The position numbers and the translations under genes were made by a program. A stretch of DNA of 64,000 nucleotides. Origin: Escherichia phage phAPEC8. Location: sequence record NC_020079.1, one strand, 5' to 3'. Positions 52,600 through 59,531 of the stretch are shown here, one piece after another (position 1 is the stretch's first letter; each line of letters opens with the position of its first letter). The notes below the pieces were generated by a model. It ran no database searches. It had not been told where the DNA came from and was given only the letters and a program-made list of their open reading frames with translations.

Positions 52600-53091
52600 A
52601 TGGCTTACCCTGATTACATTGACGAACGTGCTATGGGTTTCTTCCGTAACTTCTTGGTTGGTCGTTCTCACGGAGACAACGGTTCCAGTTATAAAACAAG
52701 CTGGGATAGTCAATGTGGCGCTAAGGCTACCAAAACTTTGAAAATGCCAGGTCGTCCGTTGTGCGCGTATTGTGGTAATGAAGCCTTAGCTCTTCAACCT
52801 TGTATTGAACATGGTGATTATACTATTAAAGGTTACACTTGTGTCTGCAAAGGTGCAATGGACGAGGCGGATTGGGTAAAAGAAAAAGCAGAGATGGAGG
52901 AACGCCATAAACGAGAAGTTTATGAAATGGAAAAACGTATGCCTGTTCCAGATTTGCAAGTTAAGAAAAATATTGTTGCGAAAATGATGGAAAAAGTCCA
53001 GAAAGCAGAGACGGAAGAAGACCTAAACCGTGCACTGGAAAACTTGCGTAATTTTAAAGAAGAAAAAGAGTTGCGCGAGATTATGTGGTAA
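52600..53091 (+). CDS. Cys-rich (zinc-binding) protein with charged helical tail
   Basis: 163 aa; CAYCGN...CIEHGDYTIKGYTCVC. Confidence 0.35.
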   Translation: MAYPDYIDERAMGFFRNFLVGRSHGDNGSSYKTSWDSQCGAKATKTLKMPGRPLCAYCGNEALALQPCIEHGDYTIKGYTCVCKGAMDEADWVKEKAEMEERHKREVYEMEKRMPVPDLQVKKNIVAKMMEKVQKAETEEDLNRALENLRNFKEEKELREIMW

Positions 53092-53128
53092 GGTATACTA
53101 TTTCCATCAATTAAGAGAGGAGAACCAA

Positions 53129-54297: not shown

Positions 54298-54548
54298 TGT
54301 TAAGCGTTAAGCCTAAGATGATCAGTGAAGACCAGAAAGATTTCATTTACAAGTGTGGACGAATCTGGAGAGAGTATACCAAGGGTAACGAGGTCGTGGT
54401 GGTTACTGAACACGAGATTGAAATCTCTGATCTTTTCGGTGATTATTTGCAAGTGATCAAATTAGGCATTGACAGAGGTTTGGTGCAGGTGTTAACATTA
54501 TCCCAAGTTGAAGCAGAACACTTAGACAAAATCATTGTCGAGTTCTAA
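54297..54548 (+). CDS. Hypothetical protein
   Basis: 83 aa ORF. Confidence 0.35.
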   Translation: MLSVKPKMISEDQKDFIYKCGRIWREYTKGNEVVVVTEHEIEISDLFGDYLQVIKLGIDRGLVQVLTLSQVEAEHLDKIIVEF

Positions 54549-54911: not shown

Positions 54912-55268
54912 ATGAAAAAATTAATCTTAGTCACATTGCTGGCTACCGTAAGCTTCACCACTTACGCTCAAAAATTTGTAGCAGTTAAAACGGATATTGG
55001 TAAAGATGTTGTGATCACAGGCAACAAGTTTTACTATACACCTGGAAATGGTGTTCTAGAAGAGTGTAAAGATATTGAGGCATATACAGGAAAAGAAGAT
55101 AACACGGAACGTCCTTTTTATTCGATTATAGCTACTTGCAAAAATGAAATAGTAGCTATTAAACAATACAAAGATGCCCCTGGAGGAGAGTACTTATTAA
55201 TCAAGAATATTAAGAGTGAAAAAACTGCAAAGTTTACAGTAATTATTTTAAAAGGAGAAACGTTCTAA
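54912..55268 (+). CDS. Secreted protein
   Basis: Start at ATG behind GGAGGG; signal peptide MKKLILVTLLATVSFTTYA. Confidence 0.4.
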   Translation: MKKLILVTLLATVSFTTYAQKFVAVKTDIGKDVVITGNKFYYTPGNGVLEECKDIEAYTGKEDNTERPFYSIIATCKNEIVAIKQYKDAPGGEYLLIKNIKSEKTAKFTVIILKGETF

Positions 55269-56407
55269 TGAAATACACTATTTTTGGAGATGTGGCTGTT
55301 GTAAATAAGGAATATGGTGTTGAAGCTAATAAACTTCCTGCTGGAGTTTGGGTTGTCAACTGCGATCCGCACGGTAACTACTCTTTAGTGCGTGGCGAAA
55401 GTTTCTCTCTTCCGAACACTCTTTATGGGGAAACTAAAGACCGCGCCGCACATGTTATTAAAACATTTGCTCGTCGTAGTAAAGAAGGTAAAAATACTGG
55501 GGTGTTACTGACAGGGACAAAGGGCAGTGGTAAGACGATGTTAGCTAAACTGATTAGCATGTCCCTAATGTCCACAGAAGGTTTAGGTATTCCGACCATT
55601 TTGGTTACACAGCCTTACACAGATGCTGGCTTCTTAGAATTTATGAGTAAAATTACAGATCGTGCTGTTGTTTTATTTGACGAATTTGATAAAGTGTACG
55701 CTAAGAAAGAAGATCAGGAAGCACTGTTGACCTTGTTGGATGGAACAGGAAGTGGGAATAAACTTTACATCCTCACTAAAAATAGTGGTTATATCTCGGA
55801 ATATTTTGTAAACCGTCCTAGTCGTATCTACTACAGTTTCAATTACGATAAACTGTCTAGTGAAACTATGTTAGATTACTTGGATAAGAACTTGGTAAAT
55901 AAAAAACACGTAGATAACTTCCAACGTTTATGGGATGTTAGCACAGAGTTGTCTTTCGATGTTATTCAAGGCATTGTAGAAGAATTGAATTTCTATCCAA
56001 AAATGACTTTTAAAGAATGTCTTGAAATGATGGGTATTTCTTTAGGCAATGATGCTAAATGGAATGTGGCTTCTATTGTAGCTAATGGCAAAACCTTGAA
56101 GGTGAATTGGATCAATAACTGGCACGACTTTACCCCTACTAAGTTTTTGTCGGGTGCTTGTTCCTTGAACATCTATCTACAAAGCTTGAAAGATGATGAA
56201 GTGGAAGCAATGGAAACCAATAGTTATGTTATCCTAGACGAAGATGGCGATCCACATATTGATCTATGTGCAACTGCTGATGGTCTAACTTGTGATCTGA
56301 TTGAAGGTGGTAAGATCCTGGTGATGAGCACTACACCAGGAAACACTCTGCGAGTGGTGCTGGAGCCTGTAACACAACGTTCCACTACTTTGGGTAGCGT
56401 ATTCTAA
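55268..56407 (+). CDS. AAA+ family ATPase
   Basis: 379 aa; Walker A LTGTKGSGKT; Walker B VVLFDEFD. Confidence 0.55.
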   Translation: MKYTIFGDVAVVNKEYGVEANKLPAGVWVVNCDPHGNYSLVRGESFSLPNTLYGETKDRAAHVIKTFARRSKEGKNTGVLLTGTKGSGKTMLAKLISMSLMSTEGLGIPTILVTQPYTDAGFLEFMSKITDRAVVLFDEFDKVYAKKEDQEALLTLLDGTGSGNKLYILTKNSGYISEYFVNRPSRIYYSFNYDKLSSETMLDYLDKNLVNKKHVDNFQRLWDVSTELSFDVIQGIVEELNFYPKMTFKECLEMMGISLGNDAKWNVASIVANGKTLKVNWINNWHDFTPTKFLSGACSLNIYLQSLKDDEVEAMETNSYVILDEDGDPHIDLCATADGLTCDLIEGGKILVMSTTPGNTLRVVLEPVTQRSTTLGSVF

Positions 56408-56424
56408 TAAGTTGAGATTCATTA

Positions 56425-56449
56425 AACCCGCTTCGGCGGGTTTTCTCTT
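56425..56449 (+). terminator. Rho-independent terminator
   Basis: AACCCGC-TTCG-GCGGGTT then TTCTCTT. Confidence 0.6.
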
Positions 56450-56482
56450 GTATGGATATCAGATTAATAAGAGGAGCAACAG

Positions 56483-57667
56483 ATGGCAGCACCAAAATCA
56501 TGGGAACAATATAAAGAAGAGTGTCAACCAATAGCAGAGAGTAAGCAAATCCAAATCTTAGGATGGACGGGAGAATGGAAAGGGGTTAATACAAAACTTG
56601 ATTTGTTGTGTCATTGTGGTTATAAATGGGATACTACAAGTATTAACAGTTTTAAACGTGGTGGTGGTTGTCCTATGTGTGCAGGTCAAATTAAAGATTT
56701 AAAAACATACCTTACTGAATGTAAACCAATAGCGGAAGCTAAGGGGATTACCATCATAGGTATCGTAGAACCGTTTAAAGGTGCGCGTACGAAAATGATG
56801 CTACGTTGTAGGTATGGTCATGAATGGAATACATGCAGTTTTGATAGTTTTAAACATGGCAGTGGTTGTCTTATATGTAGGTATGAGAACACAAGGAGGT
56901 CACAAACAATACCAGACGATCAACATATTGCAGATTTCTTTTCTACAGGGAAGTTTAAGGAAGGTACTATTTTCACCAATACGGGGGAACGTAAAGGGTG
57001 TGATCCAATATGGATGGTTCAGTGTCCTGTTTGTTCTCATGATGAATATGTTAAAGCTGGACTATGTGATGGTAAGTTTTATATGACGCGTAGCAATCTT
57101 AAATATGGACACTTACCCTGCCGTTGCTCTGCATCTTATAGGTATACAGCGGAACAGATTACGTATAAAGTAAGAAAGAAAATAGAAAAGAAAGGGTATG
57201 TTTGGATAGGATGGATTACCAAACCATCTTCTATAGGTAAGTTTAAATATGTATGTAAGAGTCATGGGGAACAAAAAGGAACTGCAAACAACCTTTTAAA
57301 CATAGGACAAGGTTGTCCGCAGTGTGCTAACAAAAATCAACAACAAGCCTACATTAATTATATTTACGATGAGCAAGATATTCTCTGTGCACTGAAGTTT
57401 GGTATTGCTAATAATAGTAATCGCCGTATCAAAGAACAAAATAGTCGTAATGTGTTTACTATGAAACAGGGTCAAGTGTGGCACTTCCCTACTGTGAAGC
57501 AATGCAAAGATGCAGAAAAGCGTTGTAAGCGTGTCCTTCACACGGAAGCAGTGAGCAAATATTCTATGCCAGATGGCTACACAGAGACAGTAGAGTTATC
57601 TTGCATGGCCTCAATACAAAACATTTATAAACTTTATGGTGGAATATTACAGGAGGAAACATGTTAG
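56483..57667 (+). CDS. Tandem zinc-ribbon repeat protein, possible nuclease-like C-terminus
   Basis: 394 aa; four ~55 aa repeats each ending in a CxxC knuckle (GCPMCAGQ, GCLICRYE, CPVCSHDE, GCPQCANK); C-terminal YINYIYDEQD...KFGIANNSNRR weakly GIY-YIG-like. Confidence 0.4.
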   Translation: MAAPKSWEQYKEECQPIAESKQIQILGWTGEWKGVNTKLDLLCHCGYKWDTTSINSFKRGGGCPMCAGQIKDLKTYLTECKPIAEAKGITIIGIVEPFKGARTKMMLRCRYGHEWNTCSFDSFKHGSGCLICRYENTRRSQTIPDDQHIADFFSTGKFKEGTIFTNTGERKGCDPIWMVQCPVCSHDEYVKAGLCDGKFYMTRSNLKYGHLPCRCSASYRYTAEQITYKVRKKIEKKGYVWIGWITKPSSIGKFKYVCKSHGEQKGTANNLLNIGQGCPQCANKNQQQAYINYIYDEQDILCALKFGIANNSNRRIKEQNSRNVFTMKQGQVWHFPTVKQCKDAEKRCKRVLHTEAVSKYSMPDGYTETVELSCMASIQNIYKLYGGILQEETC

Positions 57668-58039: not shown

Positions 58040-58228
58040 ATGGCACGTTTAGCAGATCATGAAATCTTTAAACCTATTCTGAACCACTATGATGAACTTA
58101 AAGCAGTGTTGGATTGTTATAGAGAGGATGAAGAACGTTTGGAAGTCAATCTTAAGATAGTTCTGATGAAAGCTTTTCAAGACGGGCAAGCTAAAGTTTT
58201 AGAAGGCATGAAAAATGAGAATAACTGA
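58040..58228 (+). CDS. Small hypothetical protein
   Basis: Start at ATG behind AGGAGA. Confidence 0.3.
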   Translation: MARLADHEIFKPILNHYDELKAVLDCYREDEERLEVNLKIVLMKAFQDGQAKVLEGMKNENN

Positions 58229-58757
58229 TGAATATGTATTCTTCTTTTCACATAAAGATGTGTTTAGTAATTGGTATATTGCACCCTTTACAGAAACTGA
58301 ACCAGGTTACAATCAGACATTTAATTGTGTCGAACAATACATGATGTGGCGTAAAGCTTTGCTTTTTAATGATCACAACACTGCACAGGCTATTCTGACT
58401 CATAGTTTGATACGGAAAGATGAGAAGATCCAAGCTTATTACAAACGTATGGGTAGGGCAGTGTCAGATTTTGATAACAACGTATGGGAAGAGAACCGTG
58501 AGCGTATTGTTATGCGAGGTTTATGCTTGAAATATGTACAGAATCCAGATTTGTATGCAGACTTACACCTTTACCAATACAAAACGTTTGTTGAAGCAAG
58601 TCCTTACGATAAGGTTTACGGTATTGGAATGGGAATGTATGAACCAGGGGTGCTAAATCCGGTCAACTGGAAAGGGCAAAATCTTTTAGGTAAATATCAT
58701 AACAAACTGATCGAAATACTTTTCCCAGACAAAATACCGCAAAGACGATATTTGTGA
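58215..58757 (+). CDS. NADAR (YbiA-like, DUF1768) domain protein
   Basis: 180 aa; YVFFFSHKDVFSNWYIAPF, FNCVEQYMMWRKALLFND, GQNLLGKYHNKLIEIL match conserved NADAR blocks. Confidence 0.55.
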   Translation: MRITDEYVFFFSHKDVFSNWYIAPFTETEPGYNQTFNCVEQYMMWRKALLFNDHNTAQAILTHSLIRKDEKIQAYYKRMGRAVSDFDNNVWEENRERIVMRGLCLKYVQNPDLYADLHLYQYKTFVEASPYDKVYGIGMGMYEPGVLNPVNWKGQNLLGKYHNKLIEILFPDKIPQRRYL

Positions 58758-58812: not shown

Positions 58813-58848
58813 AGGCTCCTACAGCACCGTAGAGAGCCTGTTATTTTG
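58813..58848 (+). terminator. Rho-independent terminator ending the + strand block
   Basis: AGGCTCCTAC...GTAGAGAGCCT stem followed by GTTATTTTGT. Confidence 0.5.
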
Positions 58849-59000
58849 TCCTATACAAACCCTTATCTTTTTCAGTTTGCATCACTAGGATTCGATCTAA
58901 GTGGGTTCCTGAAGGTTTACCAATAAGATTAAAGGTTATCTCAAATTCCCACTACCTATTATCTCAAAAATCCCTCAAATTATTTAAACTTTTTAAGAAT

Positions 59001-59223: not shown

Positions 59224-59242
59224 GCAAATGATAATGATTCGC
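59224..59242. promoter_or_regulatory. Fur-box-like palindrome 1
   Basis: gcAAATGATAATGATTcgc; 14/19 to consensus GATAATGATAATCATTATC. Confidence 0.35.
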
Positions 59243-59281
59243 ATTTAAGTTTATAAATGAGATTGATTCTTATTCAATAAG

Positions 59282-59300
59282 GTAAATGATAATCATTCTC
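59282..59300. promoter_or_regulatory. Fur-box-like palindrome 2
   Basis: gtAAATGATAATCATTctc; core AATGATAATCATT perfect, 17/19 to consensus. Confidence 0.45.
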
Positions 59301-59531
59301 ATTTAGAGAATGACGCGCAGGGGTGGTGTTTGTCTCGCGCTCCCGTGTCCCCTCGCCATGTAATAAGAATAACAGATCCAACCAGGAAAGCAAGCGATTA
59401 TTTTATCTTTACATTTCTTTACAAATATATAGCGCCCAGCCTACCGGCGATCAACCTTCCAACCAGTGCCCCTGGTATGTTAGCCCCGCCTTTACGCCGT
59501 GGGGTGGCGCTTCCTCTTCTGTATGTAAAAC

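Follow-up and report, generated by a model that had tools for sequence, protein, structure and literature searches.

A predicted T5orf172-branch GIY-YIG endonuclease with four CapR-type fingers occupies a variable slot in Escherichia phage phAPEC8 and its relatives

We analyzed a 64,000-nucleotide (nt) stretch of Escherichia phage phAPEC8 DNA (NC_020079.1; the window), in which an open reading frame (ORF) of 394 amino acids (aa) occupies positions 56483..57667 of the + strand, exactly where an earlier inspection of the letters alone (the sequence-only reading) had placed it. With a probability of about 0.75, the gene encodes a sequence-specific GIY-YIG endonuclease of the T5orf172 branch that carries four CapR-type fingers, belongs to the homing-type class and is held in one fixed slot of Stephanstirmvirinae genomes. 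T5orf172 is a recognized GIY-YIG subfamily, and homing-type endonucleases are abundant in phage genomes. The class is already published and near-identical copies of the gene are annotated: RefSeq orthologues are labeled 'endonuclease', one GenBank copy 'putative homing endonuclease', and a UniRef relative is named 'CapR homology domain-containing protein'. The homologue search proposed with the sequence-only reading returned PHROG 681 'endonuclease' (E 1e-81), and tblastn with the 394-aa protein matched 452 phage records; against the 'putative homing endonucleases' of ICP1 it gave ∼31% identity over aa 77-321 (E 4e-25). These data support the earlier view of tandem zinc fingers joined to a nuclease, with a nucleic-acid-targeting or homing function. 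The parts of the gene, all on the + strand, are:

56483..57667, + strand: predicted endonuclease ORF, four CapR-type zinc-finger units followed by a C-terminal T5orf172/GIY-YIG nuclease domain
56501..56686, + strand: unit 1 (aa 7-68), type A; CapR profile 47.1 bits, family hidden Markov model (HMM) E 5e-29, AlphaFold 2 model
56699..56884, + strand: unit 2 (aa 73-134), type A; CapR profile 30.3 bits, similarity to unit 1 in protein and in a 64-nt DNA repeat
56909..57130, + strand: unit 3 (aa ∼143-216), type B; CapR profile 52.1 bits over aa 156-216
57149..57331, + strand: unit 4 (aa 223-283), type A; CapR profile 29.4 bits, family HMM E 1.2e-23
57338..57652, + strand: T5orf172/GIY-YIG-type nuclease domain (aa 286-390); conserved Y290, N292, K305, G307, R315, E345, G365 and E368

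The protein contains 24 Cys residues and four CxxC motifs (at aa 63, 129, 181 and 278). Pfam detected four stretches of PF21817, the CapR homology domain (whole protein, E 7e-35, 119.5 bits), and each unit scanned singly exceeded the gathering score of 24.2 bits, which bears out the four repeats read from the sequence. The units are longer than the ∼55 aa first assigned to them, at ∼62-66 aa, with ∼75-80 aa for unit 3. Self-BLASTP of the protein did not find the internal repeat, and profiles and shuffled pairwise alignment were therefore used. When Smith-Waterman scores of unit pairs were compared with 500 shuffles, the internal repeat was confirmed for units 1 and 2 (z=30), 1 and 4 (z=6.3) and 2 and 4 (z=3.1). 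Unit 3 had no significant pairwise similarity to the other units in this test and was recognized by the PF21817 profile only. An iterative HMM built from units 1, 2 and 4 matched aa 7-68, 73-134 and 223-283, and passed over unit 3. At the DNA level units 1 and 2 repeat with a period of 198 nt (66 codons), within which a 64-nt stretch is 77% identical, and both contain the shared patterns noticed at first inspection, E-C-x-P-I-A-E (aa 13-19 and 79-85) and SFKxGxGC (aa 56-63 and 122-129). By these comparisons, the fingers are of two subtypes, type A (units 1, 2 and 4) and type B (unit 3), in the order A-A-B-A.

Type A units share the consensus ligands C-x2-3-H ... C-P-x-C, and their order in units 1, 2 and 4, C-x(1-3)-[C/H]...C-x2-C, makes them CapR-like by profile and not by the literal CapR motif. 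Unit 3 presents the canonical motif, C181-x2-C184-x28-C213-x-C215, with a spacing of 28 vs. the published 24-26. The claim that every unit ends in CxxC holds for units 1, 2 and 4, but not for unit 3, in which the CxxC (C181/C184) is the first knuckle and the unit ends in C213-x-C215. The likely ligands are C43, C45 (or H44), C63 and C66 in unit 1, and C109, H113, C129 and C132 in unit 2; those predicted for unit 4 are C258, H261, C278 and C281. In an alignment of 42 homologues the predicted metal ligands of units 2-4 are invariant, including C129 and C132 of unit 2, the four motif Cys of unit 3 (unchanged in 42/42) and all four residues of unit 4.

Structure prediction agreed with this arrangement. 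The full-length AlphaFold model (predicted local distance difference test, pLDDT, 90.8; predicted template modeling score, pTM, 0.45) shows four times a helix, three strands, a short helix and a Cys knuckle, with the C-terminal domain last; in unit 1 the elements are helix 7-20, three strands and helix 54-58. A low pTM next to a high pLDDT is typical of beads that would fold independently. In units 2 and 4 the CxxC lies at the N-terminus of a helix, in agreement with the Pfam text for the related DUF4379, which points to a probable treble clef and not to a classical zinc ribbon. The 'zinc ribbon' label of the sequence-only reading was dropped, and CapR or treble-clef-like finger is used instead. 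Foldseek of the full-length model against the PDB gave no significant match, so that no solved structure could be linked to the fold of the CapR unit. The rest of the window contains no paralogue of either the fingers or the nuclease domain.

CapR, a capsid-operon repressor, comes from a phage satellite of Vibrio cholerae, and its four Cys, in the motif CxxC...(24-26)...CxC, are needed for DNA binding; zinc-dependent, sequence-specific DNA binding by such a domain has been shown for PLE CapR alone, by electrophoretic mobility shift assay and Cys-to-Ser mutants, and its origin was traced to the N-terminal domains of the ICP1 T5orf172 homing endonucleases (Netter et al., 2021; PMC8096241). Unit 3 resembles PLE CapR most, with the CxxC...CxC hallmark and the best CapR score (52 bits), although its Cys residues are 28 rather than 24-26 apart. 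Unlike PLE CapR, a transcriptional repressor made of a single finger with no nuclease domain, the present protein combines four fingers with such a domain.

The C-terminal domain spans ∼105 aa (286-390) rather than the 90 residues first proposed, and was linked to known families through its relatives. An exhaustive HMMER run with the profile of the domain, over 1.84 billion cluster representatives, returned 1,646 proteins at E<=1e-3 (637 at E<=1e-10), and the domain was C-terminal in every one; a word-indexed search for homologues, given just the C-terminal domain, yielded 2 proteins only. Among 138 of the wider representatives, CapR co-occurred in 116, DUF723 in 29 and DUF4379 in 13, and at E<=1e-3 eight matched T5orf172 and 10 matched MUG113. 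Diverged C-termini of the family (n=26) matched T5orf172 in 12 cases (best E 4.7e-06) and MUG113 in 7. Some representatives exceeded the Pfam cutoffs for T5orf172 (20 bits) or MUG113 (22.3 bits), and P0080 reached 22.6 bits over profile positions 4-99 of 101. These matches point to homology with T5orf172/MUG113 via intermediates.

The residues expected of a catalytic GIY-YIG domain are retained. R315 (nt 57425-57427) and E345 (nt 57515-57517) are invariant in the 26-, 42- and 138-sequence alignments, and K305, G307, G365 and E368 are invariant or nearly so; R315 and E345 provide the conserved Arg and Glu known from I-TevI (R27/E75) and Odn (E180), and the beta-beta-alpha-beta-alpha core of the GIY-YIG fold is present in the model. 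A non-significant profile alignment to the GIY-YIG protein 1zg2 places G307, R315 and E345 on the YxG, Arg and Glu hallmark positions. The PDB profile search with the C-terminal alignment, from which this comes, was not significant, and its best match (E 0.7) is by chance or not a GIY-YIG protein; phmmer against PDB sequences gave spurious antibody matches only (E 0.25), and an NCBIfam scan gave no meaningful match. Of the GIY-YIG-like spacing seen at first, KFG (305-307) and R315 stand, but 'YIY' (293-295) does not, the family-invariant strand residues being Y290 and N292; the equivalent of the first 'GIY' Tyr is either Y290 or N292, or else Y293 or Y295. From the T5orf172/MUG113 matches of the relatives, the linkage to CapR and the hallmark residues, we conclude that the nuclease-like tail is probably a T5orf172/GIY-YIG nuclease domain that has diverged but keeps its catalytic residues.

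The sole biochemically tested relative of this domain type, the origin-directed anti-satellite nuclease Odn (ICP1 Gp88), shows Mg-dependent cleavage of DNA in vitro, and the activity is lost on changing the Glu equivalent to the catalytic Glu of I-TevI (PMC8263062). The present protein resembles Odn in its C-terminal T5orf172 domain with conserved catalytic Arg and Glu, but carries CapR fingers where Odn has a RepA_N DNA-binding domain captured from a satellite. In I-TevI and the Seg proteins of T4 the nuclease is N-terminal rather than C-terminal, DNA is bound through NUMOD or helix-turn-helix elements rather than a zinc-finger array, and there is no detectable sequence similarity. Slx1 and HIGLE differ in their biology: they are eukaryotic structure-specific repair nucleases (13-15% sequence identity) with a RING/PHD-type finger C-terminal to the nuclease.

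The closest known systems are ICP1 Gp174, Gp165, Gp121, Gp53, Gp130 and their relatives, which share the N-terminal repeated CapR fingers, the C-terminal T5orf172 domain, the intragenic repeats, the module shuffling and the position at exchange boundaries. In a survey of phage T5orf172 homing endonuclease genes (HEGs), CapR domains were present in 95/229 and most others had fingers of the related DUF723 or DUF4397 type; repetition of the fingers is common, repeats within a gene recombine, and the genes are situated at genetic-exchange boundaries (Barth et al., 2023; PMC10448857). The portion of the supplement text of that study that we searched does not name this coliphage family. The present gene differs from the ICP1 genes in its lineage (Escherichia Stephanstirmvirinae vs. 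a Vibrio phage), in the fixed A-A-B-A arrangement of its four fingers, which belong to two subtypes, in a divergent nuclease branch that lies below the Pfam T5orf172/MUG113 threshold, and in that alternative alleles are fixed in one syntenic slot, whereas presence is sporadic among the ICP1 genes.

By megablast the window falls among phAPEC8-like Escherichia myoviruses (Phapecoctavirus, Stephanstirmvirinae), the closest being Dompiswa phage TSP7_1 (98.3%) followed by Escherichia phage nepoznato (96.9%). In these genomes the gene stands free between an ATPase gene and a 121-aa ORF, in conserved flanks, as expected of a homing-gene architecture. Its immediate surroundings are:

55268-56407: upstream neighbor, AAA+-type ATPase (PHROG 2376, E 4e-111; weak clamp-loader/DnaC-like similarity)
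56424..56443, + strand: intrinsic-terminator-like hairpin, AAACCCGC-TTCG-GCGGGTTT with a T-rich tail (consensus scan), in the 75-nt spacer between the ATPase and endonuclease genes
56469..56476, + strand: ribosome-binding site AAGAGGAG, 6 nt 5′ of the ATG at 56483 (read from the sequence)
57651..57667, + strand: 3′ end of the gene with the ribosome-binding site AGGAGG (57651-57656) and ATG (57661) of the downstream ORF (read from the sequence)

The hypervariability of the slot is sharply bounded. The upstream ATPase gene is 95-99% identical over its full length in 63/63 matching Phapecoctavirus records, whereas the endonuclease gene reached >=80% coverage in 13 records only, with block-wise matches. 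The 300-nt windows beside the gene are 94-100% identical, and the gene itself ranges from unalignable to ∼80% identical. Collinearity with the relatives (95-98%) ends at 56410 and restarts at ∼57638, which explains the common '...EETC' C-terminus. In the six relatives fetched the slot is filled by genes that encode 332, 335, 402 and 486 aa and contain 3, 3, 4 and 5 CapR stretches, respectively, and the spans of ∼30 sampled Phapecoctavirus genomes fall into classes that match the allele sizes. Across 77 close homologues the architecture is n copies of type A (n = 1-4), type B, type A and the nuclease domain. The modules of a single gene find their nearest relatives in different alleles:

VEcB (Justusliebigvirus): unit 1, 91% identity; fingers overall, 49-91%; nuclease domain, 50%
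ukendt: unit 1, 52%; fingers overall, 39-57%; nuclease domain, 97%
phAPEC8-type allele: unit 1, 49%; fingers overall, 35-49%; nuclease domain, 34%

The DNA of the spacer and unit 1 is 91.6% identical to that of VEcB, in flanks that are ∼71% identical, and the ATPase gene has only ∼71% nucleotide identity to Justusliebigvirus. By these values, module ancestry is mosaic. The conserved flanks, the divergent gene and the mosaic modules indicate that horizontal exchange or recombination has been centered on the gene. In addition, tblastn found 2 matching places in nepoznato (MN850571.1) and 2-3 in some Stephanstirmvirinae relatives; therefore, at least one further CapR/T5orf172-type gene lies elsewhere in those phage genomes.

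The same surroundings bear on another reading, in which the protein regulates transcription by binding DNA, as do PLE CapR and the autorepressing I-TevI, and has an inactive or secondary nuclease domain. The terminator-like hairpin and conserved spacer upstream of the gene would suit such a role, as would the derivation of the CapR repressor from fingers of this kind (PMC8096241) and the precedent of I-TevI, which is both repressor and nuclease (discussed in PMC10448857). CapR, however, lacks a nuclease domain, and here every allele keeps one; no change at the catalytic-type Arg and Glu is seen in 138 diverged representatives, which argues for selection on catalysis. We consider a regulator improbable.

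Classical homing predicts a presence/absence polymorphism. Among ∼30 sampled Phapecoctavirus records no intact empty site was found, and sporadic presence or absence was not seen because, with one exception, an allele was present everywhere sampled. Of the homing function suggested by the sequence-only reading, the zinc-finger/T5orf172 architecture and the signs of recombination are borne out, but the empty site is not. Phage vB_EcoM_EP57 (OR544956.1) is the only record without the endonuclease gene, with a span of 1,863 nt for the 3,490-nt query. It carries four deletions within 5 kb (54304-54429; 56398-57647; 58151-58523, 372 nt; and 58836-58960), and its genome measures 130.7 kb vs. ∼150 kb for relatives. 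Through the second deletion the ATPase gene and the downstream ORF form one in-frame fusion (a coding sequence, CDS, of 1,506 nt). EP57 was rejected as an empty site on the grounds that the deletion is imprecise, the ATPase stop codon is removed and other deletions lie nearby; either genuine streamlining of the phage or an artifact of assembly could account for its record.

Several observations weigh against a homing-type endonuclease. Except for EP57, an allele occupies the slot in all ∼30 sampled relatives, in which the 3,490-nt query spans 3,291-3,782 nt; another genus, Justusliebigvirus, carries the gene in synteny; and the gene is translationally coupled to the downstream 121-aa ORF, which it overlaps by 7 nt, the same overlap with the downstream start being found in all alleles of the relatives fetched. 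Synteny in two genera together with downstream coupling fits not only a selfish gene but also one that is long-resident and possibly of use. On the side of the nuclease domain, the isolated C-terminal domain scored under the Pfam cutoffs (18.6 bits for T5orf172 and 19.5 bits for MUG113; 15.4 and 16.6 bits, respectively, in a scan of the whole protein), and Foldseek of its model against the PDB gave no significant match. A fortuitous GIY-YIG resemblance, in a zinc-finger protein with a non-catalytic C-terminal domain, could be set beside these low scores; with the matches of the relatives and the invariance of R315 and E345 on the other side, we regard it as highly improbable.

A domesticated resident nuclease, kept for its benefit to the phage against competing phages, host DNA or a satellite (Odn-like), with fingers that diversify in an arms race with the target, is less likely. 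It fits the presence of an allele in every sampled Phapecoctavirus and in the syntenic Justusliebigvirus slot, and the ribosome-binding site and start of the downstream ORF inside the 3′ end of the gene; sharply bounded hypervariability is what diversifying selection on specificity would produce, and Odn-like RepA_N-T5orf172 genes directed against satellites have been proposed in the same phage group (Inny, Muut and Mt1B1_P17; Barth et al.). Those genes, however, are different ones, with RepA_N domains and not CapR fingers. Odn and RepA, and CapR and ICP1, share sequence between phage and satellite, whereas none of 5,426 complete E. coli genomes contained a relative of the finger-coding DNA, and elsewhere it had one weak Burkholderia plasmid match only. 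PADLOC found no defense-system match, which also speaks against a domesticated anti-parasite nuclease. An Odn-like origin of the fingers from a captured satellite was downgraded on the same grounds, the E. coli genomes and the silence of PADLOC.

Allele replacement and module shuffling in a fixed slot are equally compatible with homing and with a retained nuclease that benefits the phage. One further view, which we hold to be rather doubtful, is that the slot is a vertically retained 'specificity cassette' in which CapR fingers are semi-independent reading heads, one DNA sub-site each. Fingers would then be added, deleted and swapped, giving the 3-, 4- and 5-finger alleles, to retarget one GIY-YIG nuclease, driven by an arms race of allele against allele or of phage against parasite. 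If true, engineered zinc-finger nucleases would have a parallel in nature, one whose modular recognition code could be deciphered.

For the homing-type endonuclease that we favor, the following course seems most likely. Each ∼65-aa CapR-type finger would bind one Zn through four Cys/His, the four fingers would jointly read and anchor on a long asymmetric DNA site, and the tethered GIY-YIG domain would nick both strands nearby using R315 and E345. Its most likely biological role is to cleave co-infecting relatives that carry a different allele. In a mixed infection, genomes with the other allele would be cut and then repaired from the genome of the cutter; repair would copy the resident allele with its flanks, so that the allele spreads and the flanks are homogenized. 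The slot would diversify by recombination, as finger modules are swapped or duplicated and the nuclease domain is exchanged, and an altered number or identity of fingers would presumably retarget the enzyme.

The gene is ordinary in itself. Its locus has practical value as an experiment made by nature, in which alleles of 3, 4 or 5 fingers, with their modules shuffled and a nuclease scaffold in common, are carried by dozens of coliphages that are nearly isogenic (flanks 94-100% identical). To our knowledge, neither a mapped target site nor a solved structure is available for any T5orf172/CapR endonuclease (PDB searches gave no significant match). The main value of this coliphage set lies in working out DNA recognition by CapR fingers, for which the locus is a tractable system, together with the modularity of that recognition. 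It also bears on whether such nucleases drive the replacement of alleles and the boundaries of recombination in therapeutic lytic phages.

The gene lies in a rightward block of small, mostly uncharacterized genes that starts near 52 kb. GC skew is positive at 1-18 kb, negative at 18-52 kb and positive from 52 kb onward, and the sign changes at ∼18 kb and ∼52 kb mark coding-strand switches. The window contains no tRNA or tmRNA genes (ARAGORN) and no Rfam families at the gathering threshold. A second presence/absence polymorphism lies ∼4 kb upstream of the endonuclease gene: a ∼510-nt segment (∼52602-53115) with a small ORF, annotated in phages WPEC2 and P3322 as a 492-nt hypothetical CDS, is shared by the window, these two phages and, by annotation, apparently EP57, and is absent from ukendt, phAPEC8_ev052, REC and SF1-1. 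Downstream, at ∼58150-58540, identity to several relatives falls to 80-82% in surroundings of 95-99%; this variable spot covers a 74-aa ORF and the start of a 180-aa COG3236-like ORF. At ∼59226-59305 an additional reverse-strand BLAST match to relatives (52-79 nt, 73-96% identity) indicates a short inverted repeat in an ORF-poor region downstream of the gene cluster.
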